From the NCBI GenBank assembly GCA_009845835.1, contig VXYV01000037.1:12955-76954 (forward strand): a stretch of DNA of 64,000 nucleotides, in the 5' to 3' direction. A program made the translations under genes and the position numbers. The stretch is from Gammaproteobacteria bacterium. Its GTDB lineage: Bacteria > Pseudomonadota > Gammaproteobacteria > Pseudomonadales > Azotimanducaceae. This document shows positions 1 to 48,824 of the stretch, piece by piece. Each line of letters starts with the position of its first letter. The stretch's first letter is position 1. Below the pieces are notes generated by a model. It saw nothing but the letters and a program-made list of their open reading frames with translations, had not been told where the DNA came from and searched no databases.

Positions 1-1284
1 CGATCGTTTGAACTGCCAATAAGCGTTCACCAGATGCGTTGGTAAATCTCTTGGTTGGCTCTCCAAGACCATATTGCAAGACCCTTCGCACTTCGATATG
101 ACTTGGGAACGTTGCTGGATGTACTTCGATAGTCCCAGTACTGTTAATGCTTGTTGCTCAGTTTTAACTTCCATGCTATGTACCAAGTCAACCACGTTCT
201 CATAGAGATTGGCGAGTACAACTGTGTGTCTGGTCGATAATAATTTGAGTGCGACCGGTAGATCGGCATCGTCGTCTCGCAAACACGTGAGTACTAAGAC
301 CATTGAACGTTTCCGATGCCGCGCGAGCGTCTCTTCAGCCGCGGCAATGTAATCGGAGGCATACGCACCAGTCTGAATGTCGTATGTGTGATTTAACAGT
401 CGCGGGATGGAAGAAAATCCGTTGATAGATTGAATCCATCTTTGTGTGTAGCCAAAACACATGACCGATACCGTGTCTCCCTGTTGCAGAGCAATATAGG
501 ATAGTAGCAATAAGCCATCGAGAGCACTATCGAAGAGAGCTGCTCCAAGTTCGTCAGTGTGCATACGCGAACCGGTATCAATCATGAACAGCAGATGTTG
601 TTCTTTTTCATCTTGGTATTCACGCGAAATCAGCGTTCGCCGCCGAGATGTCGCGTTCCAGTCGATATGATTTAAAGCGTCACCTTGACGGTACTCTCTT
701 AGCTGATGAAAGTCTAATCCAATCCCACGTCGGCGTTGTTTTTTCAATCCTAGTTGATGTGTTTGATGGGCGAGTAAAAAGCTCAAATATTTCGTAATTT
801 GAGAAAAGTCAGGATACACTCTTACCTTATCAACACAAGATACGTGAAAGAACCGTTGCCAGAATCCCAAGGGCGACGTTAACTGAAAGTCGACGAATTC
901 GAACTCAAATTCTCCGCGCATGGTCGGTTCTATGGTGTATTCTAAGTGAAATTCCTCTCTAGGATTAAGATTCGCCTTAGCACTTGAACTTTGTGGATAC
1001 AGTTCAAGAGGACAGCGATCCTGTATGGCGAGAACACACGGCTTTCGATGTAAATTCTTTACGATCAAATAGACTTTACTTTTGCAACGGATTGCTAAAG
1101 AAGTGGCGATATTTCGGTAGACGGACAACTGACCAGCTTGGAGACTACGAGCCGCTAAAGCATCAAGGAGTACGATCAAAACAAATATACCGATTATCAC
1201 ATAAACCAACATTCGGATGTTTGGAAATAGTAAGAAGATCGAAAGACATAGGACGATCCAGATGAGAGAATAATTGGGTTTCAT
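1..1284 (-). CDS. DUF58 (VWA-like) protein, MoxR partner; the 3' end runs off the window
   Basis: Absent from the ORF track because it has no stop inside the window. My own minus-strand translation from ATG 1284 (ATGA overlap with the MoxR stop) stays open to nt 1 (428 codons): MKPNYSLIWIV... It has two N-terminal TM helices, the DUF58 signature LDFHQLREYRQGDALNHIDWNATSRR, and a VWA-like strand LLFMIDTGSRM. Confidence 0.85.
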   Translation of the reverse strand, partial: MKPNYSLIWIVLCLSIFLLFPNIRMLVYVIIGIFVLIVLLDALAARSLQAGQLSVYRNIATSLAIRCKSKVYLIVKNLHRKPCVLAIQDRCPLELYPQSSSAKANLNPREEFHLEYTIEPTMRGEFEFEFVDFQLTSPLGFWQRFFHVSCVDKVRVYPDFSQITKYLSFLLAHQTHQLGLKKQRRRGIGLDFHQLREYRQGDALNHIDWNATSRRRTLISREYQDEKEQHLLFMIDTGSRMHTDELGAALFDSALDGLLLLSYIALQQGDTVSVMCFGYTQRWIQSINGFSSIPRLLNHTYDIQTGAYASDYIAAAEETLARHRKRSMVLVLTCLRDDDADLPVALKLLSTRHTVVLANLYENVVDLVHSMEVKTEQQALTVLGLSKYIQQRSQVISKCEGSCNMVLESQPRDLPTHLVNAYWQFKRS

Positions 1285-2258
1285 TCGCGCGGAGCTTCAA
1301 CTTTCTCGAGTACTTGTTCTAAGATATTGTCCGTTGTTTGTCCTTCGATTTGATACTCCGGGCTTAGTGCAATGCGATGCCTTAAAACCGGTAGTGCTAT
1401 TTCACGAATGTCGTCAGGAGTGACATAGTTACGATTGTTAACGAGGGCCGACGCTCGTCCCATGCGGACTAAAGCAATGCCTGCTCGTGGGCTCGCGCCT
1501 TGTACGATTCCGGGAAACGATCTGGTCGCCCGAACAATCTCCACCGCGTAATCTCGGACAGCTTCGTCAAGTTCAATTTGGGAAGCGACTGCTTGTGCTT
1601 GGCTGATATCAGCAGCCGAAGCAACTGCTTTCACATCAGTGACACTGAGCTCGTCCACCGGTCGATTTGTTGTGACTTGATCTAATATTTTTGCTTCGTC
1701 TTCCATCGTCGGATAATTAATGAACACATTGACCATGAATCTATCTAATTGCGCTTCAGGTAATGGATAAGTTCCTTCATATTCAATTGGGTTTTGTGTG
1801 GCTAACACCATGTAGGGAGCTGCGACGGCAAAACTTTCTCCCTCAATAGTCACCCGCCGTTCTTGCATGACTTCAAGTAACGCTGATTGTGTTTTCGCTG
1901 GCGCTCGATTGATTTCGTCTGCTAATAAAAGGTTGGTAAAAACTGGACCTTTGCGAATGATAAATCGCTCTTCTTTTAAGTTGTATTGAGCATGACCTGT
2001 GACATCGCTAGGCATCAGATCTGGTGTGAACTGTATTCTCGAAGTATCGCATTGGATGCTCTTCGCTAACGCTCGTACGAGCAAAGTTTTACCCAAACCT
2101 GGGACACCCTCAAGTAAAACATGTCCGTTGGCTATGAGACACTGCACTACTTGCCGAATAACCGGGTACTGTCCTATCACTACTTGACTAACAGTGTCCA
2201 TCAGTTCTTGAAGATTGCGCATGCGGTCCTGGATTTGGTGATCTAGGTCTTCATTCAT
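1281..2258 (-). CDS. MoxR-family AAA+ ATPase
   Basis: 325 aa. Walker A is GVPGLGKT and Walker B/sensor is LLADEINRAPAKTQSALLE. The length and C-terminal lid are typical of MoxR. Confidence 0.93.
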   Translation of the reverse strand: MNEDLDHQIQDRMRNLQELMDTVSQVVIGQYPVIRQVVQCLIANGHVLLEGVPGLGKTLLVRALAKSIQCDTSRIQFTPDLMPSDVTGHAQYNLKEERFIIRKGPVFTNLLLADEINRAPAKTQSALLEVMQERRVTIEGESFAVAAPYMVLATQNPIEYEGTYPLPEAQLDRFMVNVFINYPTMEDEAKILDQVTTNRPVDELSVTDVKAVASAADISQAQAVASQIELDEAVRDYAVEIVRATRSFPGIVQGASPRAGIALVRMGRASALVNNRNYVTPDDIREIALPVLRHRIALSPEYQIEGQTTDNILEQVLEKVEAPRE

Positions 2259-3537
2259 TGTTTGGGTTCTCTTTTGGTTTAGGGTTCTTGGAGTGAAACA
2301 GATTATTCCGTAACAGTCGTTGTAGTTTTCTCACCACTCTGACTAATGAAGCATTATTGGACGGATTAAGTTCAGTTGGATCACTTAATTCGTAAGAAAC
2401 ATTATTTGGGTTAAATTGTTCCTGTCGTTGCACACTTCCTTCGGGTTTGAAAGTCCGTTCAGGTTGTTCTGCTATCTGGTGTAGCGCGCGGATGTGATTT
2501 TCGATTTGTTTGTTGTGCCAAGCAAATTGGGACGCACTGTTTACGTAGTCCAATATGTGCTTTTGCTGAGTTGAAACGGAGTAAACCGGCGGCGATATTC
2601 GAATGCTCCAGGCTAGGATGGCTAGGATGAAAGCGACAAAACAACCTAAGATTGTTTGCCACGAGTGAAGCCAAACAAGAGTAGCTAGTTTGGGGTAAGA
2701 TTGAACGATCCAAACAGTAAGAGGCGTGAGACTTTCCTGCAAAATGTTTGAGGTCCTATGAACTAAAAGCAAAAATAACAACGCATGGTCTGCGCAAACA
2801 ACGGTGTCGTTTCTCCACATTCGAAAACTATTGACAAAATAGACGTTGCCTAGCCCTTCAGAGATGTGAAGAAGATTTGACGGTGCGATTTCATTCATAG
2901 AATGCTTGAAGGGAGAATATTTGGTTTCAAATTGATATCCCCCTGCGGCAGTCTTGTCCATATTCAAAGCTAAACCCATGTCAAGAACGAATGGTTCTAT
3001 CGAATCAGAACAATTGGGCGTCGTTTGCATCCCGCGATTAATCCATTCGTCCACAAATGCAGGTAAGTCCATTTGTTCCATTTCTTCTATTGGTTCGATG
3101 ACTCGATACACTGCATACTTAGCGGGGAAGTAATTCAAACGAGAAAAATAGTCCGCAGGAGGCTCACTCGAGTCTAAGGTATCAACTTCAACGAATAGTG
3201 TACCGCCACGACGAACCCAATTTTCTAATTGCTCGCTGGCTTGCCTATTCCTAATCAACTCTTGAGGCCTTGAGATAAACAGTGTGTCGTTGATTGAGGG
3301 TTCTTCTTCCGAGAGGAATGGGTTGATAGTATGTACTTTGAAGTTATATTCTTTGCCCAATTCTTTGAGCGCAAAGTACGAGTCGAAAGCTGCTTGGTCG
3401 GTTAGCGTAGGGACATTCACTGGTTCCGTGGTCGCTCGCACATAGAACTGAACTAACCCCACGAATATTGCGACGGTCACGAGCACACATATGAGTACCC
3501 ACCCGCCTACCGGGACTTTACGTAAAAGATGCTTCAT
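2251..3537 (-). CDS. Membrane protein, DUF4350-like (assigned by architecture and cassette position)
   Basis: 428 aa with an N-terminal TM anchor (WVLICVLVTVAIFVGLV), a large extracytoplasmic domain and C-terminal TM helices. It overlaps MoxR by 8 nt. This is the position normally held by DUF4350 in MoxR/DUF58 cassettes. Confidence 0.55.
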   Translation of the reverse strand: MKHLLRKVPVGGWVLICVLVTVAIFVGLVQFYVRATTEPVNVPTLTDQAAFDSYFALKELGKEYNFKVHTINPFLSEEEPSINDTLFISRPQELIRNRQASEQLENWVRRGGTLFVEVDTLDSSEPPADYFSRLNYFPAKYAVYRVIEPIEEMEQMDLPAFVDEWINRGMQTTPNCSDSIEPFVLDMGLALNMDKTAAGGYQFETKYSPFKHSMNEIAPSNLLHISEGLGNVYFVNSFRMWRNDTVVCADHALLFLLLVHRTSNILQESLTPLTVWIVQSYPKLATLVWLHSWQTILGCFVAFILAILAWSIRISPPVYSVSTQQKHILDYVNSASQFAWHNKQIENHIRALHQIAEQPERTFKPEGSVQRQEQFNPNNVSYELSDPTELNPSNNASLVRVVRKLQRLLRNNLFHSKNPKPKENPNNE

Positions 3538-4966
3538 ACGTTTGAACTAAGTCGTTATAAGTTGGTGTTTCGATAGCTTTATGAGCGTATGCAACCAGTT
3601 GCCAACATTCTGTAATTGATGCAAATGCCGAGAGTACACCAGGTACATTCTGAGCGACTAGTTGCAGGCAAGAAGCCTCAGTGTGACTTAGATTGATAGG
3701 ACAATCAAAACGCGCGACAAGGCAATAAAGTGCCCCTCGGTACAACAGTGATATAGCTTCTCGATAGTCACCAGAATCCCAAGCGTTACGTGAGCTAGCA
3801 ACAATATTTTCCGGTAGTTCTAATTTTTGAAAGATTTCCTCGATAATGTGAGTACGTTGAGTTCCGAGATCTACCTTACGCGGTTTGAATCGACTAAAGT
3901 CTAATTTTCTCAATTGCCACAGTAAGTAAACAATCAATGCGATTGTGACAGAGATAATAAGAATTTGCACTACCCTTGCGAAGAAGGTCGCTAAACCTAA
4001 GTCTATCGTGGGAGCGTTGCTCCTTGGTTGTGGACTTCTCGATTGTTTCTGTTGACGTATCGTCGTTTCCGTTACTACCTGCTCATGATAGATTTTTTCG
4101 ATTTCACTACTGACGGTTTCGTGCACTGTTTTTTCATCTCCCATATTTCCTGGATGAACCTGTGCATAAATCTGTTCGCCATTCGTGAGAACTAAGACAG
4201 TCGCGATCAGGACTATCGATATTCGACTAATTAGACGGCGAAATCCAAGATCAATATCCCATCCTTCCAACTCGATTCGTTTATTCAGGTAGATTGCAAA
4301 ACCACAACATATATAGAAAGGAGCAATCACTGCAAAACTTACAAAAATTAACGTCTTGAACACGTGACTACCGATAGCACTAATGAAAGCAAATATAGCT
4401 TGCGGATTAAAAGTTGGTAATTCAGGGGTAATCGAGAATATTATTGACGATACCCAAGTTATCACTGTAAGAAAAAACACCACAAGAGAGATTTCCATAC
4501 AGAACATCAACAGATGTAGTATCAAGTAATATCCTATGATTCGATCTCGAATCAAACGTCGTCGTATGCCAATTCGAATTGGCGCTGATTCAGTGTTTTC
4601 AAGGGCCGCGATGGGTGTGAGAGTACTACGGCCAGGAAACAGCCGAAACAAACTTAACCATAACCAAGTGTCGCCCATGAAAATCGTACGCAAGGTTTGT
4701 TGCGCGGTAGCTTGTTGATCAAACAACGTTGAAGCAATAAAACGAAGGGGAATTCGTTCGTATAACGGTTTGAAAAACCATAACAAAAAGATAGACCAAA
4801 ATAAATTTGGTATAAACCAGACGACTATGAATACTGGCACGGCAAGAACTAACCAACCAGCAAGCAATTCCCACCAAAATTTTCTGGCGAGAAGCGCACC
4901 GGCGCCGATCGCCTCGAAATTTGTACGATGTCGAAGTGCAAGTTTAGCGGTGGGAATGTTTGTCAC
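3518..4966 (-). CDS. Polytopic membrane protein with C-terminal DUF4129-like domain
   Basis: 482 aa with multiple TM helices. The C-terminus AWDSGDYREAISLLYRGALYCLVARFDCPINLSHTEASCLQ matches the DUF4129 pattern (W..G.Y.EA...LYR.....L.......T..E). It overlaps the downstream gene by 20 nt. Confidence 0.6.
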   Translation of the reverse strand: MTNIPTAKLALRHRTNFEAIGAGALLARKFWWELLAGWLVLAVPVFIVVWFIPNLFWSIFLLWFFKPLYERIPLRFIASTLFDQQATAQQTLRTIFMGDTWLWLSLFRLFPGRSTLTPIAALENTESAPIRIGIRRRLIRDRIIGYYLILHLLMFCMEISLVVFFLTVITWVSSIIFSITPELPTFNPQAIFAFISAIGSHVFKTLIFVSFAVIAPFYICCGFAIYLNKRIELEGWDIDLGFRRLISRISIVLIATVLVLTNGEQIYAQVHPGNMGDEKTVHETVSSEIEKIYHEQVVTETTIRQQKQSRSPQPRSNAPTIDLGLATFFARVVQILIISVTIALIVYLLWQLRKLDFSRFKPRKVDLGTQRTHIIEEIFQKLELPENIVASSRNAWDSGDYREAISLLYRGALYCLVARFDCPINLSHTEASCLQLVAQNVPGVLSAFASITECWQLVAYAHKAIETPTYNDLVQTYEASFT

Positions 4967-5924
4967 GGCCTACGAACAAGAAGTAATAAAAAACTGCTAT
5001 CCAAAGTAGTATCCCCACGCTATATTTGATGGAGTTAGGTAAAAAATCGCTAGGAGACCAAAACGCTTCGATAAAAGCGGCAAGAATAAACATGGTAAAG
5101 AAACCACCGCAAAGCAGGAATGCTTCTTTGGAGGCTATCTTGATGGATGTTTTGCGGGCGTAAACACCTGGAATAAACACTCCTTTTGCCATTCGGAGTC
5201 CGGCAGCACCAGCAATAACTATCGCCGTAAGTTCGAAAGCCCCATGACCAACTACAAACGGTAAGACCGTCGAAGAATAACCAGCGATACACAAATAAGT
5301 TATGACGCTACCAATGAAGATTCCATTAAACGCTAGGGCAATGATCGACCCGATGCCAAAGACCAGTCCGTTAATAAATACTAGCAATCCGATTGAAGTA
5401 TTATTCAAGATGTAATGGCCAAACATTTCTATGTTCTCGATTGCTGTGCGCTTCACACGTCGACGTTCACTATTAGGATCGTACATTTCTTGTAATTGGT
5501 ATAGTTGCTCATCGCTTAGGACTGTATGCACGAATTCGGTTTGCGTGGAGATCATATATGACATGCCCAATCCAGGGCCAACGAAGGCAAGAACCGAGAG
5601 CAGAATGTACAACTTTTGTGAACGAACCGCTTGAGGAAATGAGTAAGTAAAAAAGTTCAGGAAACCGTGTACCCATCCAAATCTTTTTGTGTAAAGTAGG
5701 TTGTGACCTCTTTGGACAAGATTGTTCAACCTATCAATCAATTGATTACTGTAACCGCGAGTTCGAGCGATTGTCAAATCGTGTGCAATGCGTCGGTACC
5801 GATCCGTAAAACCGTCTGCATTAGTGGATTTACCCCTATTCCAACGACTTTCCAACCGATCTAAGGACGTAAGAAATTCCGACCAGTCGGATTCTTTAGT
5901 GTGGACGAAGTACGACTCTTTCAC
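4944..5924 (-). CDS. Stage II sporulation protein M-like (SpoIIM/DUF95) membrane protein
   Basis: 326 aa. A cytosolic region of about 100 aa is followed by a hydrophobic core (GIGSIIALAFNGIFIGSVI ... GHGAFELTAIVIAGAAGL) typical of DUF95. It overlaps the downstream gene by 23 nt. Confidence 0.65.
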   Translation of the reverse strand: MKESYFVHTKESDWSEFLTSLDRLESRWNRGKSTNADGFTDRYRRIAHDLTIARTRGYSNQLIDRLNNLVQRGHNLLYTKRFGWVHGFLNFFTYSFPQAVRSQKLYILLSVLAFVGPGLGMSYMISTQTEFVHTVLSDEQLYQLQEMYDPNSERRRVKRTAIENIEMFGHYILNNTSIGLLVFINGLVFGIGSIIALAFNGIFIGSVITYLCIAGYSSTVLPFVVGHGAFELTAIVIAGAAGLRMAKGVFIPGVYARKTSIKIASKEAFLLCGGFFTMFILAAFIEAFWSPSDFLPNSIKYSVGILLWIAVFYYFLFVGRDKHSHR

Positions 5925-6811
5925 TTTACCCCTCGAATCGAGTTCGCGTATTCCATACAGGCACGAACCGCCGATTCTCCCTCCAAACCATGCAGCGGGT
6001 AGAGAATCTCAGCAAGTTCAATAGCTCTTCCCTCAGAAAACGAGCCGAGACGATCCTGAAATTCCAACAGCAAGAGTTGTTCGTTCACCTTCAATGGCTG
6101 TGGAATTTGTCTTACCGTAGCTGTGGGTTCTCGTTTTGCAAATTCTGGTGTGTTGGTGTGGATAACCATCGTATTGGCTAAGTGGTCGCCAAGCCGGCGA
6201 AACCGAGCTGAAAACAGGATAAATAGTGCTCCCGGCATCCCTACGCCGCCAAGTGGTAAACCGACCATAAATAATGAAACACTATCGATAGGTCGGAAGA
6301 GATTTCGAACTGCCGCAGAGTACAAACTGAGTGGAGTTCCATCCAGGTTTACGGCTTTTGCTTTTACCATCATTTTTCCGGGAGTCATACCGTCGTTAAA
6401 CCATTCAAAAATAAACCCGTACAACCAGAGAACAACAAAAACGATAATTAAATGTAATCCAGAAAGATTGAGTCCGATCAATCCCAGATATTGGAAGACT
6501 AGCTGCAAGAAAAAGAAAACAAGCAATTTGATAATTTCGTCGACCAAAAAACCGGTACCACGAGCAACAATGCCAGCTGGACGCAACACAATCTGAACCC
6601 CCTCCGGCGTGTCGTGATCAAATCGGGAGTCAATCGTATGCGCGGCGTCAAAATCCCGATAGCTATAGCGTGTATGGGAAGTTTCGAGGATATTTTCTGG
6701 ACGATCGATATTGGTGTTCCTTGAAGATTGACGAGACGGTCGTGACTTGATGTTTTTCAAAACTTCGTCAATAGTCTTGTTTAAATGGTAAGGATTGTAC
6801 AAGAAAATCAT
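5921..6811 (-). CDS. RDD-family membrane protein
   Basis: 296 aa. The RDD-type core runs RPAGIVARGTGFLVDEIIK ... TPGKMMVKAKAV ... RRLGDHLANTMVI. The stop/start overlap with the SpoIIM-like gene is 4 nt. Confidence 0.7.
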   Translation of the reverse strand: MIFLYNPYHLNKTIDEVLKNIKSRPSRQSSRNTNIDRPENILETSHTRYSYRDFDAAHTIDSRFDHDTPEGVQIVLRPAGIVARGTGFLVDEIIKLLVFFFLQLVFQYLGLIGLNLSGLHLIIVFVVLWLYGFIFEWFNDGMTPGKMMVKAKAVNLDGTPLSLYSAAVRNLFRPIDSVSLFMVGLPLGGVGMPGALFILFSARFRRLGDHLANTMVIHTNTPEFAKREPTATVRQIPQPLKVNEQLLLLEFQDRLGSFSEGRAIELAEILYPLHGLEGESAVRACMEYANSIRGVK

Positions 6812-7952
6812 GATCTAAGCGGACGTATTCTTCTTCATCTTCCAGGAAACTAATGATTGCCTGACGAAAATTTTGATTACTGATGTAGTGAGCGGAATAG
6901 GTTGTAACAGGTTCGTACCCTCGTGAAATCTTGTAGTTTCCCTGAGCCCCACCCTGGATTGTCTTAAGACCGTGATGGATAGCGTATTCGATCGCTTGAT
7001 AGTAGCATAGTTCGAAGTGTAAGAATGGGTGATGTTCGATACACCCCCAGTTTCGACCGAAAAGTACATCTTGACCGATGAAATGTAAGGAACCGGCAAC
7101 GTAGTTCTTACTTGACTTTGCCAAAATCAACAAAATCTGCTCCTGCATCATTTCGCAGATCAAACTAAAAAACCTTCTGTTCAGATACGGTCTACCCCAT
7201 TTTCTTGCACTCGTATCTAAGTAACACTGGTAAAACACGTCCCAATGGCTTTCCAAAACATCTGAACCAGTTAACCACTCAACAGTCAAAGCTTCATTTA
7301 CCGCGAGTTTACGTTCCCGTCGAATGTTTTTTCTCTTTTTGGTGGAGAGATTCGACAGGAAATCATTAAAGGAAGAATACCCTCTATTCTGCCAATGTAA
7401 TTGCGTGTCCGTCCGTTTCAAAAATTGTGTACTAGCACAGACCCGATTGCATTGTGTTCTGTCCAAAAAAGTCAAGTGCGCTGAACTTAGCGCATTCTGT
7501 TCGACGATTTCTACTATTGTTTTCGTAAAGAGTGATTCCAATTCTTGTTTTCGATACTCTTCAGCTAGCAGAATTCGCTTGTCGGCGACGGGTGTAAAAG
7601 GCACGCACACTTGTAGTTTTGGGTAGTAATTACCACCCGCATTCTCCCATGCTCCAGCCCACTGGTAGTCGAAGACAAATTCCCCCATTGAGTGTGCCTT
7701 GAGGTACATTGGCATCACACCAACTGTCCGATTCGAAACACGCAATTCAAGGTGCATAGGTTGCCAGCCAGTTGTATTCATTACGCATCCACTATTTTCT
7801 AGTGCATGGAGGAATCGATAGTCGATAAACGGAGAAACCGACTGAGTAATACAACGGTTCCAGTTGTGCATACCAATGTTTTCGATACTCCTCTGAACTT
7901 CGATTTTTGCAGAAGATATATCAATCTGTCGTTTACCTTGGGTATCGCTCAA
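6768..7952 (-). CDS. FemAB-like / GNAT-fold protein (COG3146, DUF482 family)
   Basis: 394 aa. The N-terminal FIDYRFLHALENSGCV..TGWQPMHL and central KKRKNIRRERK plus the C-terminal half are characteristic of the PF04339 family. Confidence 0.75.
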   Translation of the reverse strand: MSDTQGKRQIDISSAKIEVQRSIENIGMHNWNRCITQSVSPFIDYRFLHALENSGCVMNTTGWQPMHLELRVSNRTVGVMPMYLKAHSMGEFVFDYQWAGAWENAGGNYYPKLQVCVPFTPVADKRILLAEEYRKQELESLFTKTIVEIVEQNALSSAHLTFLDRTQCNRVCASTQFLKRTDTQLHWQNRGYSSFNDFLSNLSTKKRKNIRRERKLAVNEALTVEWLTGSDVLESHWDVFYQCYLDTSARKWGRPYLNRRFFSLICEMMQEQILLILAKSSKNYVAGSLHFIGQDVLFGRNWGCIEHHPFLHFELCYYQAIEYAIHHGLKTIQGGAQGNYKISRGYEPVTTYSAHYISNQNFRQAIISFLEDEEEYVRLDHDFLVQSLPFKQDY

Positions 7953-7986
7953 GATATGTCACTCGATTTTTTAGTTACTCTTCAAC

Positions 7987-8769
7987 TCAAACATTTTCCA
8001 TCTTTTTGTACACCATGACTCCGATACCCAAAAGTACAATGGTATAAACGATTAACACACTTATGTGTAAAAATATGTTCACGCTGTTCGAAGCATCTAT
8101 TGCACTGAGTGCCAATTGAACAGAATGAAATGAAGGTAGATAGTGAGCTACACTTTGCAACCAAGGCGGAAAATAGGTGTAAGGAACGATGATTCCACTC
8201 AGAAACAACATTGGCAAATAAATCAGATTCACAATTGCATGAGCAGAATTTGCGCTGACTGCGCAACCCATTACAAGACCTAACATACAAAATGGTAACG
8301 AACAGAACATTTGAGTAACGATGAGAACAAAAATTTGTTGGATGCCCAGATCTGCCGACCCGAAAATTAACGAAATACCAACAAGTAAAGATGTGATCAG
8401 GGCACAAAACACCATCGCCATGAAGGCTTTTGCTAGAAAATGAATGTAAACTGGTAGGGGGCTGACTCGTTTTAGCAACAACCAACCTTGTCCCCGTTCG
8501 ATCGCGATGTATACACCAAATCCAAAAAGCGAGGTCCCAATCATTCCGATAGAACTTGCAGCGACCAACCAATAATGATCGGCGCGAATTTCTTGCACAT
8601 CTATGTCGATGAGTACACCACAGACGATGTAGACAATTAACGGGAATGACAAGATTGAACTAGAAAATGCGGGTAGTCGCAAGCACTTTATTACTTCTAG
8701 TTTCGATTCTGTGTAGAGAATACGTAATAATTGAACGAGGCTATACCCCATCGCACCTTTAGTTGTCAT
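7987..8769 (-). CDS. ABC-2 type exporter permease
   Basis: About six TM helices directly downstream of an ABC ATPase. I chose the start at the internal Met (MTTKGAMGYS...). The track start at 8829 would overlap the ATPase by 71 nt. Confidence 0.75.
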   Translation of the reverse strand: MTTKGAMGYSLVQLLRILYTESKLEVIKCLRLPAFSSSILSFPLIVYIVCGVLIDIDVQEIRADHYWLVAASSIGMIGTSLFGFGVYIAIERGQGWLLLKRVSPLPVYIHFLAKAFMAMVFCALITSLLVGISLIFGSADLGIQQIFVLIVTQMFCSLPFCMLGLVMGCAVSANSAHAIVNLIYLPMLFLSGIIVPYTYFPPWLQSVAHYLPSFHSVQLALSAIDASNSVNIFLHISVLIVYTIVLLGIGVMVYKKMENV

Positions 8770-9679
8770 GTTCAGTGTGGGTAAGTAGGTGTAGATAGGC
8801 ATCTTCGATTGTTGCACATTTAATCTCAAGTTGACTGGTAGAGCTATCCTCAGAAAGTATGTGTCTCACGGTGTTTTCCACTTCATTCACAAACAGTCGC
8901 GTCAGGTTACCTATTTTTTCGACGCGTTTTACATGAGGGAGTTTGATAAGTTCACGCGGATCAAGTGACGTATCGCAGGAAATTCTCGAGTCAGCGAAGT
9001 TGGCTCGTAAATCTTCAGGTGTTCCGTTCAGAATGATATTTCCTTCATGAAATACGATCACATGAGATGCTAAGTGTTCAGCTTCCTGAAAGTCATGGGT
9101 TGACACAACGAAAGTACAACTGTTAGCTCTCAGTTTATCAATTTGTTCCCATAGTTGAAGTCTCGATTGAACATCTAGAGAAGAACTTGGTTCATCCAAA
9201 AACAGTAATGAGGGTCGACCACATATTGCCAAAGCAAAGTGCAACTTTTGTTTTTGACCAACACTTAGTGCACTGTACTTTTTCTTTTCTAATCCGCCGA
9301 GTTGGGAGAGTTGTATTACTTCAGTAAAACTAAGTGGTTGAACGTAGTAACTCCTGAATGAGTTAATGTGTTCCGCTACTGTAAGTGTCTGCGGGACCCC
9401 TGATATCTGCAACATAACACCCGTTTGACGACGGGTCGCAGGGTGGCCTGCAGAGTTATTTAACACGGAAATTTGTCCCGCTGAGGGTTGTAGTGCACCA
9501 GCAAGCAAATTCAGTAGGGTGCTCTTTCCAGCGCCATTTGGTCCTAGTAACACACAATTCGCCCCTGCCTTAACCTCGAAAGAAACTCTATCCAACGCTA
9601 CTTGATTCGAGAACCTTTTGGTGACGTCTGAAACGCGAATAACGACACTGTCAATCGGACTATGCGTCTCTAAATTCAC
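8759..9679 (-). CDS. ABC transporter ATP-binding protein
   Basis: Walker A is GPNGAGKST, the signature is LSVGQKQK and Walker B is LLFLDEPSS. Confidence 0.92.
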   Translation of the reverse strand: MNLETHSPIDSVVIRVSDVTKRFSNQVALDRVSFEVKAGANCVLLGPNGAGKSTLLNLLAGALQPSAGQISVLNNSAGHPATRRQTGVMLQISGVPQTLTVAEHINSFRSYYVQPLSFTEVIQLSQLGGLEKKKYSALSVGQKQKLHFALAICGRPSLLFLDEPSSSLDVQSRLQLWEQIDKLRANSCTFVVSTHDFQEAEHLASHVIVFHEGNIILNGTPEDLRANFADSRISCDTSLDPRELIKLPHVKRVEKIGNLTRLFVNEVENTVRHILSEDSSTSQLEIKCATIEDAYLHLLTHTEHDN

Positions 9680-9792
9680 TATTTCAATAGAGCCAGGAAG
9701 TGATTGTGTTGTATCATTTTTGGTTTGTAAATTATGCTATCACTATATCTAGGGCAAGGGTAATTTTCGCGAATGTACAATCGTTTGTGAAA

Positions 9793-9869
9793 TGGTCGGA
9801 GTGGCCGGATTTGAACCGGCGGCCCCTGCCTCCCGAAGGCAGTGCTCTACCAAGCTGAGCTACACTCCG
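9793..9869 (-). tRNA. tRNA-Pro (anticodon CGG)
   Basis: The hand-folded cloverleaf has acceptor CGGAGTG/CACTCCG, D stem GCTC/GAGC, anticodon stem CTGCC/GGCAG with loop TTCGGGA, T loop TTCAAAT and an encoded CCA. Length is 77 nt, and it lies 19 nt downstream of ispB. Confidence 0.93.
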
Positions 9870-9888
9870 AATTCCTCCAAAGTCAGAT

Positions 9889-10890
9889 TTAATGCATCCG
9901 ACAGACCGTAACATTAGCCAACGCTTCCAGACCAAATCGGAACGGATTGGGTGGTAGACTTACTAAAGATTCTATACACAGGGTAGTATGTTTTTGCGCC
10001 ATTTTATGACAGTACTCTAAACTTCCCGTTGCTTGCACCGCTTGCATCACTTCTGACAAATTTTCACTACTTCTCTGCAAAATTGCTTGGCGCACGATTT
10101 CTTTGTTTCTAAAGTCACCGTGTTGTAAAGTATGGATTAAAGGAAGAGTGGCTTTACCTTCTGCTAAATCGTCACCCACGTTTTTCCCCATCTCGACATC
10201 GTCTCCAACAAAATCAAGCCAGTCGTCGATCAATTGAAATGCCATACCTAAATGTAAACCGAACTCTCGAAGCGCGTACTGTGTGGTTTGGTTAGAACCA
10301 GCTAGTGCTCCAGCTGCCTGTGCCGAGGCTTGAAACAGCATTGCGGTCTTGTATCGAATGATCTCTAAATATTCTGCTTCTGTTAACTCAGCATTTCCGA
10401 TGTGTTGCAACTGCAAAACTTCACCTTCAGCAATCACATTAGTCGCATCACAAATAATCTCCAACATCGGCATCGAACGAATATCGACCATCAATTGAAA
10501 CGCACGGGAATAGAGGAAATCTCCAACCAAAACACTAGGAGCATTCCCCCAGACGACATTTACGGTTTGTTTTCCGCGGCGACGGGTCGAAACATCAACA
10601 ACATCATCATGTAAAAGAGTCGCGGTATGTAAAAATTCAACAAGAGTAGCTAGTTTGATATGGTCTTGACCCGAATAATTGCATACCGCAGCAGCGAGCA
10701 GGACGACTAATGGTCGGAGACGTTTTCCACCGGCACCGACTATGTACTTTGCGACTTCGACGACAAGTGGTATATCGGATTGTAAATCACTATGAATCCG
10801 CTGGTTAACCGTCTCGAAATCACTTTTTACAAGAGCGAAAACTTGATCGATACTGGGATCGCTAAGTAATTCGGCAAGTTTGGTGTGCAT
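9889..10890 (-). CDS. ispB: Octaprenyl-diphosphate synthase
   Basis: The polyprenyl synthase DDxxD motifs LLHDDVVD and LIDDWLD are present. The gene is divergent from rplU-rpmA, as in other Gammaproteobacteria. The start is set at the second Met (MHTKLAELL). Confidence 0.9.
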   Translation of the reverse strand: MHTKLAELLSDPSIDQVFALVKSDFETVNQRIHSDLQSDIPLVVEVAKYIVGAGGKRLRPLVVLLAAAVCNYSGQDHIKLATLVEFLHTATLLHDDVVDVSTRRRGKQTVNVVWGNAPSVLVGDFLYSRAFQLMVDIRSMPMLEIICDATNVIAEGEVLQLQHIGNAELTEAEYLEIIRYKTAMLFQASAQAAGALAGSNQTTQYALREFGLHLGMAFQLIDDWLDFVGDDVEMGKNVGDDLAEGKATLPLIHTLQHGDFRNKEIVRQAILQRSSENLSEVMQAVQATGSLEYCHKMAQKHTTLCIESLVSLPPNPFRFGLEALANVTVCRMH

Positions 10891-11285
10891 CTTTTTAACG
10901 TATCTTGTTTCGAACAAAGACTGAATGGTTAAGCTAGGCAAGCCACATCGAAAATTTTATTTTCCTAAGAACTCTGGCGAAAGTACGCGTTGTACCAATC
11001 TGAGTTTTGGTTTACTCACATTAGGCATTCACTTAACCTTTTCGTTGAGGTAACTTAGTTTTTTGGGGAACTGAAAATCAACTACCGTAAGGAGTTAATA
11101 TTAAATCTTGCGATCGACTTTAACAGACGGTAACCTCATTAGAGGCGTATGTACATTGGGCATGAAAATAAGCTGTTTGTGAATTCGATTAAAATTATCC
11201 GTTCACTTAAGTAATGTTCTAGTCTGATCGCTGAGCTGGAACGAACCTACCACTAATTTATCATTTCAGCAATTTGGATTCATTT

Positions 11286-11905: not shown

Positions 11906-13057
11906 ATGAAATTTCTCGATGAAGTCTCCATCACCGTATGTAGTGGTCGAGGTGGCGATGGGTGTATGAGCTTTTTACGACGCGCCAATTTCGCCAAAGG
12001 TGGTCCCGACGGTGGAAACGGAGGACACGGTGGTTCTGTATATCTTGTTGGTGATTCTTCACTCACTACACTTGTTGATCTTCAGTATCAACCAATACAG
12101 AAGGCCGGGAACGGGCGGCCAGGTGGTAGCGCGAATAAAAGAGGTGCACAAGGTTTTTCACTAGAAATCTGCGTCCCATTTGGTACTACCATCGTCGATG
12201 ATGAAACTTTAAGTGTGTTAGGCGATGTCACACACGAAAATCAGCGAGTGAAGGTGGCAGAAGGGGGTAGTCCAGGACGAGGTAACGCCTCCTTTAAGAC
12301 TAGTACCAACCGCGCTCCACGCGAGTTTACTACCGGAACTTCTGGAGTCCGTCGAATACTTCGTCTACAGCTTAAAGTTGTCGCTGATGTTGGACTACTA
12401 GGTTTACCTAACGCGGGAAAAACCACGTTGTTAAGTCGAATCTCTGCAGCGCACCCGAAAATTGCGGACTATCCGTTTACAACTCTGCGACCACATTTAG
12501 GTGTGGTGCGTCCTCAATCAGACAACAGTTTTGTAGTCGCCGACATTCCGGGATTGATTCGGGGCGCGTCGGAAGGCCTAGGGTTGGGGACTCGGTTTCT
12601 ACGACATTTAAGTCGAACTTGCATGCTAGTACATTTAATCGAAGTAAACCCACCGGATGGGTCAGATCCTATTCAAAATCTGCTTGATATTGAGCAAGAG
12701 CTTGCCCGGTATAGCACAATTCTTACGACTTTTCCTATCGTAATTGTTTTGTCCAAAGTGGACTTGTTACCAAAATCGGAATGGACATCTAAAGTCAACG
12801 CGTTAAAGCAACGATTTCCTGACAGGCAGATTCACGCCATATCGGCAGTTAGTAATATTGGGATTGAACAACTGCTCACTGAGTTATCGACCACGGTACA
12901 GAATCTGAGAAATGGATCTACGGAAGACTTAGATTCAGAACTAGAAGAACGCGATAGACGTGCTCAACTTGCAAAAGATGTATTGGTACATTCGATGAAG
13001 GATCGAACCAGAATTCAAGCCAAGGACGATTCGGAATTGAGGAATTCCTGTCCTTGA
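11906..13057 (+). CDS. obgE: GTPase Obg/CgtA
   Basis: The Obg fold starts MKFLDEVSI..GGDGC, with G1 GLPNAGKTT and G3 DIPGLI. It follows rpmA as usual. Confidence 0.95.
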   Translation: MKFLDEVSITVCSGRGGDGCMSFLRRANFAKGGPDGGNGGHGGSVYLVGDSSLTTLVDLQYQPIQKAGNGRPGGSANKRGAQGFSLEICVPFGTTIVDDETLSVLGDVTHENQRVKVAEGGSPGRGNASFKTSTNRAPREFTTGTSGVRRILRLQLKVVADVGLLGLPNAGKTTLLSRISAAHPKIADYPFTTLRPHLGVVRPQSDNSFVVADIPGLIRGASEGLGLGTRFLRHLSRTCMLVHLIEVNPPDGSDPIQNLLDIEQELARYSTILTTFPIVIVLSKVDLLPKSEWTSKVNALKQRFPDRQIHAISAVSNIGIEQLLTELSTTVQNLRNGSTEDLDSELEERDRRAQLAKDVLVHSMKDRTRIQAKDDSELRNSCP

Positions 13058-47276: not shown

Positions 47277-48328
47277 TGATTAAACGTTTCGACTTTTACA
47301 TCATCCGAACACTGTTGGTGAGTATGTTTGCCGTAATGTTGTGTTTGTTGTTACTCATGACAATGTTTGGTTTTGTCGATGAGGCGCGAGGGGTCGACGA
47401 AACACGTTCCTTTCTCAGTATTTTGGCGATCGTATTACTTGATGTCCCTTCGTCTTTAGCAGAATCGGTTACTTACATCGTTTTAGTAGGGGTATTGATC
47501 GGCTTAGGTGCAATGAGTCAAAATTCGGAAATCACAGTATTACGTGCTTCTGGCTTGTCGCCTTGGCGATTGTGTATTTCGGTTGCAGCGGCTTCGTTGA
47601 TCTTTTTTAGTGGGGTTGTGTTAGTCAGTGAACTGATGAAAAATCCTGTTCTTTCTCGCCTTTTTTTGCCAGAAGCTGCTAGTCAGAGTGACGAAGGAAC
47701 CTGGTATCGAGAAGGTAAAACGTTCTATCAGATCCGTGCCTTTGACGAAAGTGGAAACCTGTATGGAATGGAACAGTTTACCTTTCAACCAGATAGTACC
47801 TTAGAAAGTATATTACAAGCTGAGATTGGTGTTATTGAACCGGTTAACAAATCGTTTGTCCTAGCGAATGTTACTGAGAAAAACTTCACTTCAGAGAACA
47901 TTCAATTCAGCCGTTCACCAAGTGGTAGTTGGGTACCACATAGTGATCCATCGTCGCTGAAGAGGCGGATACTTACCGATCCGTCACAACTTTCATTAAA
48001 TGATTTATTTGATCAAATTGAGTATTTGCATAACGAAGGCAAAAGTACTCGACTACTAGAAATTACAGCTTGGACTCGTTTGACGAAATCGTTGTCAATT
48101 ATTGGTCTCGTGCTCGTCGCAGTAGGATTCGTGATTGGTCCCCTACGTGAAACTGGTATGGGGACACGCATAGCAGTAGGATTGGGTGTGGGTATTGTGC
48201 TTGAATATCTCAACCGAATGCTCGTTCCGTTAGCGTTGCTCTATGAGATCCCGCCTGTGGTGGTTGTACTACTTCCGCTTTTTATCATTTTTACCTGTGG
48301 CATTTACCTGTTGCGGAAGGTCAATTGA
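47276..48328 (+). CDS. lptG: LPS export ABC permease LptG
   Basis: The N-terminus MIKRFDFYIIRTLL is YjgP/YjgQ family. It has a TAATG-type junction with lptF. Confidence 0.9.
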   Translation: MIKRFDFYIIRTLLVSMFAVMLCLLLLMTMFGFVDEARGVDETRSFLSILAIVLLDVPSSLAESVTYIVLVGVLIGLGAMSQNSEITVLRASGLSPWRLCISVAAASLIFFSGVVLVSELMKNPVLSRLFLPEAASQSDEGTWYREGKTFYQIRAFDESGNLYGMEQFTFQPDSTLESILQAEIGVIEPVNKSFVLANVTEKNFTSENIQFSRSPSGSWVPHSDPSSLKRRILTDPSQLSLNDLFDQIEYLHNEGKSTRLLEITAWTRLTKSLSIIGLVLVAVGFVIGPLRETGMGTRIAVGLGVGIVLEYLNRMLVPLALLYEIPPVVVVLLPLFIIFTCGIYLLRKVN

Positions 48329-48772
48329 AGGTTTTTCGTACCTGTAGCGAATAACATAACTGTTGGAGAATAAATCGGACCACGATCGACGGTTTTTGTC
48401 AAACCAAATCCAGTAATATCCAAGTCCAAGAGTAAGTATTGAGAGCAGTTCTCCACAAAATCGAAAAAGAGCACTTCTTAATGTGAAGGTGGAAGAAGAT
48501 TTAAGTCGTAGCTTCCATGCCAACATGCCGATTGTTTGTCCACGATGGATCCAGAAAAAACAGAAAAATACAAAAGTCTCGACTAATAATATGCTCTGAA
48601 GTAAAGCACCTGTTACTTCACGGCCATTAACAAGCACGATAAGAGAAGTTGTAACAGCCCATAATGCAACTACAATCAACGTGTCATAACACAGTGCAAA
48701 AATTCGAAATCGAAACGGCGATGGACCCATTTCAAGAAGAGTGGTTTCTCGTTGTTTTTTAGGTTTCATCAC
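48269..48772 (-). CDS. RDD-family membrane protein (small)
   Basis: 167 aa containing RIFALCYDTLIV and GQTIGMLAWKLRL, with three TM helices. It converges on lptG. Confidence 0.7.
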   Translation of the reverse strand: MMKPKKQRETTLLEMGPSPFRFRIFALCYDTLIVVALWAVTTSLIVLVNGREVTGALLQSILLVETFVFFCFFWIHRGQTIGMLAWKLRLKSSSTFTLRSALFRFCGELLSILTLGLGYYWIWFDKNRRSWSDLFSNSYVIRYRYEKPSIDLPQQVNATGKNDKKRK

Positions 48773-48824
48773 ACGGTGTAGTATATCGCTGTCGCGCGGA
48801 CGAACGGACTATAATTTCTGTTGC

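Follow-up and report, generated by a model that had tools for sequence, protein, structure and literature searches.

A six-gene MoxR/DUF58 membrane cassette of an uncultured gammaproteobacterium, very probably of the Arc2 type

Gene content and organization of the cassette

The 64,000-nucleotide stretch analyzed here (positions 12,955 to 76,954 of contig VXYV01000037.1, assembly GCA_009845835.1; hereafter the window) derives from a metagenome-assembled genome (MAG) of an uncultured gammaproteobacterium. Its first 6,811 positions are occupied by six minus-strand open reading frames (ORFs) encoding RDD, SpoIIM-like, DUF4129, DUF4350, MoxR and DUF58 proteins, a cassette that very probably is of the same type as Arc2, the "antagonism resistance cluster 2" of Pseudomonas aeruginosa. 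Upon recomputation, the coordinates and overlaps given for the six genes in the original prediction were matched exactly. From RDD to DUF58 the genes, with the evidence for each assignment, are:

5921..6811, minus strand: RDD-family inner-membrane protein (arc2B/PA4318-like); Pfam, hydropathy, alignment, gene order
4944..5924, minus strand: SpoIIM-family polytopic membrane protein with DUF8413 (arc2C/PA4319-like); Pfam, homologues
3518..4966, minus strand: two-module DUF4129 membrane protein (arc2D/PA4320-like); Pfam below cut-off, homologues, AlphaFold2 (AF2) model
2251..3537, minus strand: bitopic DUF4350 protein (arc2E/PA4321-like); Pfam below cut-off, homologues, AF2 model and Foldseek
1281..2258, minus strand: MoxR-family AAA+ ATPase, cytoplasmic (arc2F/PA4322-like); Pfam, Walker motifs, match to PDB 2R44
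1..1284, minus strand, cut by the window edge: DUF58 protein (arc2G/PA4323-like); Pfam, hydropathy, alignment

Consecutive genes overlap at every one of the five junctions, by 4 (GTGA), 23, 20, 8 and 4 (ATGA) nucleotides in the order listed, gene starts being those of the longest ORFs. These overlaps, together with the tight junctions conserved in relatives (see below), bear out the earlier view of a single, tightly coupled cassette. On the parent contig the DUF58 protein is 431 amino acids long (L001, 12254-13549); the window holds 428 of its codons, lacking only the last three and the stop. The start of the RDD gene is uncertain, with candidate start codons at codons 1, 4 and 18 (positions 6811, 6802 and 6760); homologous RDD proteins begin at the equivalent of window residue ~59, where there is no start codon in the window. 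Relative to all homologues, whose start reads MLDTxxxETPEG (alignment A6), the cassette RDD protein carries an N-terminal extension of at least 41 amino acids.

All six domain assignments put forward earlier hold, those of DUF4129 and DUF4350 at the level of the family. Pfam matches were obtained for RDD (E = 5.7e-16, amino acids 79-213), SpoIIM (PF01944; E = 5e-30, 105 bits), the MoxR domains AAA_3 (E = 2.1e-63) and AAA_lid_2 (E = 5e-22), and DUF58 (PF01882; E = 4.5e-19, 68.9 bits versus a cut-off of 23.4). The matches to DUF4129 (PF13559; E = 1.3e-3, 19.2 bits versus a cut-off of 24.8, amino acids 408-478) and DUF4350 (PF14258; E = 2e-5, 25.4 bits versus a cut-off of 30.4) fall below the Pfam thresholds and are backed by homologues that bear these domains and by the predicted fold of the DUF4350 protein. 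Of the 167 sequences hit by a profile of the DUF4129 protein, most have a precomputed PF13559 annotation, and close homologues of the DUF4350 protein carry precomputed PF14258. NCBIfam has no model for five of the six cassette proteins, and MoxR gives only sub-threshold AAA+ matches there.

Correspondence with the Arc2 cluster of Pseudomonas aeruginosa

One genome per species was scanned with conserved SpoIIM-like motifs, and each of the six window proteins served as the seed of an iterated profile search through the 80 loci recovered. Pseudomonas loci in this set are flanked by sbcB (exonuclease I)/purU-like, mvaT-like (H-NS-like), PilZ and pykA-like (pyruvate kinase) genes, a setting that we took to resemble the PA4314-PA4329 region of strain PAO1. 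Genes PA4317-PA4323 have been named arc2A-G (Ting et al., eLife 2022, PMC8926400). As reported in that study, Arc2 belongs to a set of three Gac/Rsm-induced operons identified by transposon sequencing as protective against Burkholderia thailandensis's type VI secretion system (T6SS). Deletion of PA4323 or PA4320 lowers survival, both genes acting in one pathway, and deletion in the attacker of colA, which encodes the pore-forming toxin ColA, partly restores survival (PMC8926400). Under oxidative, heat, osmotic and detergent stress arc2 mutants survive as well as the wild type does, expression of Arc2G is very low unless Gac/Rsm is activated, and Arc2 made no contribution to the killing of B. 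thailandensis (PMC8926400). Hosts were named as Pseudomonadaceae and Xanthomonadaceae, and the cluster, whose proteins are described as uncharacterized, was noted to include a MoxR-like ATPase, as well as a protein carrying a von Willebrand factor domain (PMC8926400).

In the Pseudomonas loci, the gene-specific stretches of the deletion primers published for PA4320 and PA4323 align, with no more than 3 mismatches, at four places: within the SpoIIM-like gene, over the opening codons of the DUF4129 gene, within the MoxR gene and at the MoxR/DUF58 ATGA junction. The F1 primer for PA4320 encodes FGFYIMN, corresponding to the SpoIIM-like family motif MFGxYIxNN, and the F1 primer for PA4323 encodes TQNPIE, which occurs as ATQNPIE in the window MoxR. 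Judged by the primer positions, the SpoIIM-like protein corresponds to PA4319, the DUF4129 protein to PA4320, MoxR to PA4322 and DUF58 to PA4323. BLASTP identities between the window proteins and those of a Pseudomonas locus (L028) are 58% for MoxR, 38% for SpoIIM, 36% for both DUF58 and RDD, and 25% for DUF4129; DUF4350 is related to its L028 counterpart by iterated profile only (5e-105 to the family hidden Markov model, HMM). The primer mapping and the protein identities indicate that the window cassette is a divergent Arc2 orthologue, and we are highly confident that it is of the Arc2 type. It shares with the P. aeruginosa cluster the six families, their order and the tight junctions, and differs from it in being divergent, in lacking an arc2A-type gene, in being preceded by a FemAB_like gene and in its origin from an uncultured gammaproteobacterium.

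By synteny we infer that arc2A is the gene for a ~270-amino acid DUF975/BPSS1780-like membrane protein located upstream of the RDD gene. Across the locus set no neighbour is conserved except this one, which occurs in roughly one locus out of four (BLAST clustering, 24 loci; family HMM, 19 loci). As the six-gene unit is conserved without it, arc2A appears from these comparisons to be dispensable.

The earlier description of the cassette as functionally undescribed is therefore outdated, given the arc2A-G phenotype in P. aeruginosa (PMC8926400) and a prediction published in 2015 by Makarova et al. (PMC5898192). The accompanying statement that no biochemical role has been demonstrated for any of the proteins stands (PMC8926400, PMC12663445). 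A name, a regulator, a phenotype in P. aeruginosa and a comparative-genomic prediction were thus already available, and the window contributes one more divergent member. New here are the breadth of the six-gene core, the clade-wide loss of the canonical metal ion-dependent adhesion site (MIDAS), the division of the DUF4129 protein into two modules and the topology proposal.

Conservation and distribution of the six-gene unit

Of 84 loci, every one has the RDD and SpoIIM families, while 82 have DUF4129, 77 DUF4350, 74 MoxR and 71 DUF58; absences are explained mostly by contigs that end inside the cassette. RDD is the leading gene of the cassette in 80+ loci. The order RDD>SpoIIM>DUF4129>DUF4350>MoxR>DUF58 is present outright in 53 of the 84 loci, plus almost all others of sufficient length. 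Essentially no variation in it is seen among Gamma- and Betaproteobacteria, Desulfobacterota and Myxococcota, and it recurs in two further MAG contigs, one of them labelled Verrucomicrobiota, and on a Catenovulum megaplasmid. Co-occurrence of the genes, proposed as a check of the original prediction, was evident from their co-linearity in nearly all of the 80 related loci, and the earlier statement that similar gene sets are widespread in Actinobacteria and other phyla was confirmed by the loci found across phyla. In one Pseudomonas locus (L076) MoxR and DUF58 were not detected. For a Haloferula homologue (P0243) no contig was found on look-up.

An NTGA start/stop overlap is available at the RDD-SpoIIM junction in 60 of 81 cases, at DUF4129-DUF4350 in 55 of 72, at DUF4350-MoxR in 54 of 71 and at MoxR-DUF58 in 39 of 66. 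Frequencies at these four of the five junctions (59-77%) are well above chance, which by a rough estimate, not a simulation, would account for at most about 15-35%, and coupling is hence a conserved property. Such overlapping junctions suggest that the six proteins are co-produced in stoichiometric amounts.

Rearranged versions of the cassette also exist. On Rhizobium leguminosarum pRL11 (L088, 1612-8974) the order is DUF4129 C-module>DUF4350>MoxR>DUF58>SpoIIM>RDD, the DUF4129 gene comprising the second (C-terminal) module only. In Nonomuraea (L090), DUF4350>MoxR>DUF58 is followed by SpoIIM on the opposite strand and then by RDD, these families all being recognized by profile. A DUF4350-MoxR-DUF58 core with adjacent SpoIIM and RDD thus persists despite rearrangement in both. 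The upstream DUF4129 gene is confirmed, of the two, only in Rhizobium; upstream of the Nonomuraea cassette its presence was not established (no Pfam match; hhalign E 0.0034, probability 9.6%). Two DUF805 membrane proteins precede the pRL11 cassette, and a DUF805 gene also adjoins that of Verrucomicrobiota (L086, 1704-2195). Also, Curtobacterium flaccumfaciens plasmid pCff1 (L091, 1780-9113) contains a copy of the whole cassette with many frameshifts, in which each family is split over several ORFs. This copy, either decaying or affected by a sequencing or assembly artefact, was not used in the analysis.

The six-gene unit without arc2A accordingly reaches beyond the Pseudomonadaceae and Xanthomonadaceae into Desulfobacterota, Myxococcota and Verrucomicrobiota, and occurs in rearranged form in Rhizobium megaplasmids and in actinomycetes, including the moxR2 region of Mycobacterium tuberculosis.

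Predicted architecture of the membrane proteins

According to hydropathy, the RDD protein has about three transmembrane segments. Alignment of 12 cassette RDD proteins with 2 paralogues revealed a C-terminal extension of ~80 amino acids that is absent from the nearby non-cassette RDDs. The SpoIIM-like protein, for which 3715 homologues were retrieved at E<=1e-5, has an N-terminal DUF8413 domain (PF28475, precomputed annotation) of ~100 amino acids, predicted to be cytoplasmic, and polar residues within its transmembrane region (N174, N175, N200, H227, E231 and E286) are invariant. A sequence search of the PDB with its profile recovered no relative. A sporulation role for this protein was rejected, the host being a gammaproteobacterial MAG and the resemblance one of family membership only. 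No autolysin was found among the ORFs scanned in window positions 1-10941 or the genes of the parent contig, no search being aimed at SpoIID or SpoIIP, the autolysins that act together with SpoIIM in the DMP engulfment complex of endospore formers.

The DUF4129 protein appears to be a fusion of two modules. Its N-terminal module (amino acids ~1-241) is polytopic, with four transmembrane helices and no Pfam family, and contains Arg-rich conserved loops, predicted to be cytoplasmic, and an invariant YLNRRxxLEGWD segment. In the second module an internal signal peptide-like transmembrane segment is followed by a short periplasmic linker, a further transmembrane segment and a DUF4129 bundle predicted to be cytoplasmic (amino acids ~371-481). 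Residues R230, W236, T429 and E430 are invariant (alignments A2/A3). In four loci (L011, L049, L053 and L083) the gene is split into two ORFs at the internal transmembrane segment. One of these loci, from Parabeggiatoa (L083), holds only SpoIIM and the split DUF4129 genes. The AF2 model of the protein (mean predicted local distance difference test, pLDDT, 82) is all-helical, and its DUF4129 region is modelled confidently as a four- or five-helix bundle. Foldseek comparison of the model with the PDB gave no significant fold match. The best non-significant match of the bundle (encoded at 3518-3870) was the HEPN four-helix bundle 2hsb (E 0.11, target TM-score 0.62), which we treat as a generic resemblance between bundles. 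The N-terminus of the protein (LRPRxxWEAxDLG..., window 4966-4700) is loosely like the C-terminal part of an arc2A-like DUF975/BPSS1780-type protein (L026, 8364-9179). Relatedness of the N-terminal module to arc2A-like or DUF805 proteins is unsupported, with hhalign probabilities of 1.3% and 0.1%, respectively.

A first homology search with the DUF4350 protein returned 3 relatives only, and an exhaustive profile search 272 representatives at E<=1e-3. Its predicted topology comprises an N-terminal transmembrane anchor, a periplasmic alpha/beta domain (amino acids ~47-278), a transmembrane segment (~284-311) and a conserved cytoplasmic helical tail of ~110 amino acids. For the alpha/beta domain of the AF2 model (pLDDT 85.5), Foldseek returned GH164, matched in its non-catalytic middle domain (E 2.5e-4); weaker matches were to the corresponding domain of GH42 glycosidases (E 2e-2 and above) and to the N-terminal domain of IFT52 (E 1.9e-2). 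The modelled domain can thus be assigned to the GldG/IFT52-like, flavodoxin-like (GldG/beta-galactosidase-trimerisation-type) fold, the same GldG-type fold that was reported for the DUF4350 family on the basis of HHpred (Makarova et al. 2015, PMC5898192). Altogether, hydropathy, the positive-inside rule, the alignments and the two AF2 models suggest a topology in which the DUF4129 bundle and the soluble part of DUF58 would be cytoplasmic and the DUF4350 alpha/beta domain periplasmic.

The MoxR ATPase and its DUF58 partner

The window MoxR has intact Walker A (GVPGLGKT, amino acid 51) and Walker B (LLLADE, amino acid 110) motifs and matches a MoxR protein of solved structure (PDB 2R44) at 7e-81. 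It also matches Pfam bpMoxR (4e-11), the AAA_3 match being far stronger, and gives weak matches to Mg/Co-chelatase subunits. The gene that overlaps its stop codon (ATGA) encodes a partner of the vWA (von Willebrand factor type A) kind, DUF58, which on hydropathy consists of an N-terminal transmembrane hairpin and a soluble region ending in a vWA-like domain. This region is presumably cytoplasmic, on the same side as MoxR. A sequence search of the PDB found no solved relative of DUF58.

At the MIDAS position the window protein reads DTGSR, the canonical DxSxS being absent, as had been pointed out previously. The deviation holds for the whole clade: nearly all of the 68 aligned cassette DUF58 proteins have D-x-G-[RHS]-R-M at this position, with Ser replacing Gly in a few, and the site is non-canonical also in the Rhizobium and archaeal (Haladaptatus) proteins. 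DTGSR is therefore a conserved substitution and no local oddity. With the MIDAS replaced by D-x-G-x-R, partner binding is probably not metal-mediated.

Related systems

Adaptors of the characterized pairs RavA-ViaA, CbbQ-CbbO and NorQ-NorD use a canonical MIDAS. These pairs resemble the cassette in that an AAA+ MoxR ATPase is encoded beside a vWA-type adaptor, whereas the cassette differs from them in its D-x-G-x-R sequence, its membrane-anchored adaptor and its membrane-protein partners. The TgpA operon of P. aeruginosa may also be compared. If, by Pfam architecture, PA2875 is MoxR-like, PA2874 is a DUF58 protein and a DUF4129 domain lies at the end of TgpA, then DUF4129 would be a recurring partner of MoxR and DUF58. 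PA2875-PA2874-PA2873 are transcribed together, the last of the three encoding an inner-membrane protein (PMC3507681). Unlike the cassette, in which the Pfam scan detected no transglutaminase domain, TgpA has a periplasmic one and is essential.

In mycobacteria, Rv3689/90-Rv3695 (the moxR2 region), together with its actinomycete relatives, clusters DUF4350, MoxR, DUF58, SpoIIM and RDD as the cassette does, but arranges them as DUF4350>MoxR>DUF58 with an opposite-strand SpoIIM and then RDD, the layout of Nonomuraea being that of Rv3691-Rv3695. Neither a functional study nor a phenotype came up when the literature was searched for Rv3690-95 and for the DUF names. In archaea, DUF4350, MoxR and vWA proteins were predicted by Makarova, Galperin and Koonin (2015) to form a new secretion or membrane-remodelling system, and a bacterial SpoIIM+vWA+COG0714 neighbourhood was also noted (PMC5898192). 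This arCOG01314 system shares with the cassette the core trio of a membrane-anchored flavodoxin-like DUF4350 protein, a COG0714 ATPase and a vWA/DUF58 protein; its partners are S-layer/Ig-like proteins, whereas those of the bacterial cassette are RDD, SpoIIM-like and DUF4129 proteins.

Proposed function and alternative explanations

As a divergent Arc2 orthologue, the cassette may serve in this organism to shield the inner membrane from toxins that damage membranes, a role to which, by analogy with P. aeruginosa, we give about an even chance. How this might be achieved can be sketched tentatively from the anatomy of the proteins and from known MoxR-vWA pairs. DUF58 would be held in the inner membrane by its N-terminal hairpin, and its cytoplasmic vWA-like domain would recruit a MoxR hexamer, with partner recognition independent of a MIDAS metal. 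The ATPase/adaptor pair would act on a hetero-oligomer of the RDD, SpoIIM-like, two-module DUF4129 and DUF4350 proteins, for which the DUF4129 bundle, DUF8413, the RDD C-terminal extension and the DUF4350 tail could provide cytoplasmic handles and the GldG/IFT52-like domain of DUF4350 the periplasmic face. ATP-driven remodelling would then keep the cytoplasmic membrane intact when pore-forming toxins of competitors arrive. A single six-protein complex, its binding partners, the ATP-driven remodelling and a function matching that in P. aeruginosa are all suppositions here, and the mechanistic details, that is, a DUF58-recruited MoxR hexamer remodelling a four-protein membrane complex, are somewhat unlikely to be right as drawn.

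Several points weigh against this proposal. None of the Arc2 components is biochemically characterized (PMC8926400), and complex formation and topology are predictions. The specificity of Arc2 for ColA is only partial (PMC8926400), a 2025 study states that it is not known which type of effector Arc2 counters, and arc2 gave no hit in a CRISPR interference screen with A. baylyi or V. cholerae as attackers (PMC12663445). Using the family HMM, no arc2A-type gene was found anywhere in the 64-kb window. Also, the cassette is present in actinomycetes, which to our knowledge are not T6SS targets, so that its ancestral role may exceed defence against interbacterial attack.

This last point leads to the possibility that the cassette is devoted to housekeeping, namely envelope homeostasis or the assembly and quality control of membrane proteins, with the MoxR/DUF58 pair maturing or disassembling an endogenous inner-membrane complex and the antagonism phenotype arising indirectly from a weakened envelope. 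The very wide distribution (Verrucomicrobiota, alphaproteobacterial megaplasmids, actinomycetes) is consistent with such a role, as are the core genes that surround the cassette in the window (ispB-like, obg, rpmA, rplU, aspS/asnS-like) and the uniform GC content (41-45%). In M. chelonae the homologues of Rv3691-95-type genes are co-regulated with glycerol-metabolism genes (PMC8191103), and MoxR ATPases as a group tend to be chaperone-like (Snider and Houry 2006, as cited in PMC8926400). However, the wild-type stress survival of arc2 mutants and the low level of Arc2G without Gac/Rsm misfit a constitutive role in P. aeruginosa (PMC8926400), and we hold this explanation, the main rival, to be unlikely overall. 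A novel secretion or transport apparatus as proposed by Makarova et al., in which the GldG-like periplasmic domain would be a substrate-handling subunit, would agree with the GldG/IFT52-like character of DUF4350 by fold and by HHpred (PMC5898192), with the preponderance of membrane proteins among the components and with the invariant polar residues of the SpoIIM-like transmembrane helices, which could line a conduit. Yet no cargo gene is conserved beside the cassette, whose sole recurrent extra neighbour is the small arc2A-like protein in about a quarter of the loci; there is no outer-membrane component, the S-layer/Ig proteins of the archaeal system are absent from the bacterial cassette, and Arc2 does not contribute to the killing of B. 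thailandensis (PMC8926400). An export function is, in consequence, improbable.

Two other roles fit less well. Pairs of MoxR and vWA proteins such as NorQD, CoxDE and CbbQO act in metal-cofactor insertion and enzyme activation (cited in PMC8926400), and the weak matches of MoxR to chelatase subunits might point to a similar service for an enzyme encoded elsewhere; but the MIDAS serines, which bind the metal or an acidic residue of the client, are absent clade-wide, no conserved neighbour encodes a client enzyme, and every conserved partner is a membrane protein devoid of recognizable catalytic domains, making this role very improbable. Even less credit is given to a MoxR-vWA ternary system acting against phages or in some other biological conflict. 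The bpMoxR match and the control of phage defences by Gac/Rsm in pseudomonads (PMC11888443) speak for it, whereas AAA_3 outscores bpMoxR by far, PADLOC gives only trivial P-loop matches for MoxR (E about 5e-4) and leaves the other five proteins without a match, beta-propeller and effector domains are absent, and the cassette is in stable synteny with core genes and not in a defence island. Metal-chelatase and phage-defence roles were both rejected, on the missing MIDAS and the negative PADLOC result among other points.

With regard to inner-membrane protection against toxins, a bolder version can be envisaged, in which the cassette would constitute a new kind of ATP-driven machine for inner-membrane repair or toxin removal, expelling, disassembling or sealing off pore-forming toxins or other membrane lesions. 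A MoxR hexamer, docked via a MIDAS-less, membrane-anchored vWA adaptor, would pull on the cytoplasmic handles of the four-protein complex. We consider this version quite unlikely. If true, a repair machine would be shared, in rearranged forms, by Proteobacteria, Verrucomicrobiota, actinomycetes and, in part, archaea.

Arc2 is among the few non-immunity defences known against interbacterial toxins, and the defined core, the MIDAS-less adaptor, the DUF4129 modules and the proposed topology offer starting points for biochemistry and structural work.

Genomic neighbourhood

Upstream of the cassette lies a lineage-specific neighbour that is outside the conserved unit:

6768..7952, minus strand: FemAB_like/GNAT gene (Pfam FemAB_like, E = 8e-147)

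This gene overlaps the RDD ORF by 44 nucleotides, and the transcription unit may therefore extend upstream in this lineage. Directly upstream of it, with very short gaps, are genes for an ABC-2 permease and an ABC ATPase (6768-9679 for the three, minus strand). FemAB_like and ABC-2 neighbours occur beside the cassette only in the close relatives L001-L004, so that the neighbourhood is lineage-specific and possibly co-transcribed with the cassette. A promoter and terminator scan of the parent contig yielded signals at or below shuffle expectation, which means that operon boundaries cannot be set from it.

Between DUF58 and the RDD paralogues of a relative with 52% identity (L004, 13578-15488) there is an ORF of 636 amino acids with no Pfam or NCBIfam match. 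In the parent contig of the window, two RDD-family paralogues are located directly downstream of DUF58 (L001, 13738-14388 and 14554-15156), both without the C-terminal extension of the cassette RDD, and a third was detected, by profile only, at window positions 48272-48808 (minus strand). Extra RDD genes also flank the cassette in L004, L015, L016, L019, L061, L064, L075 and L079.

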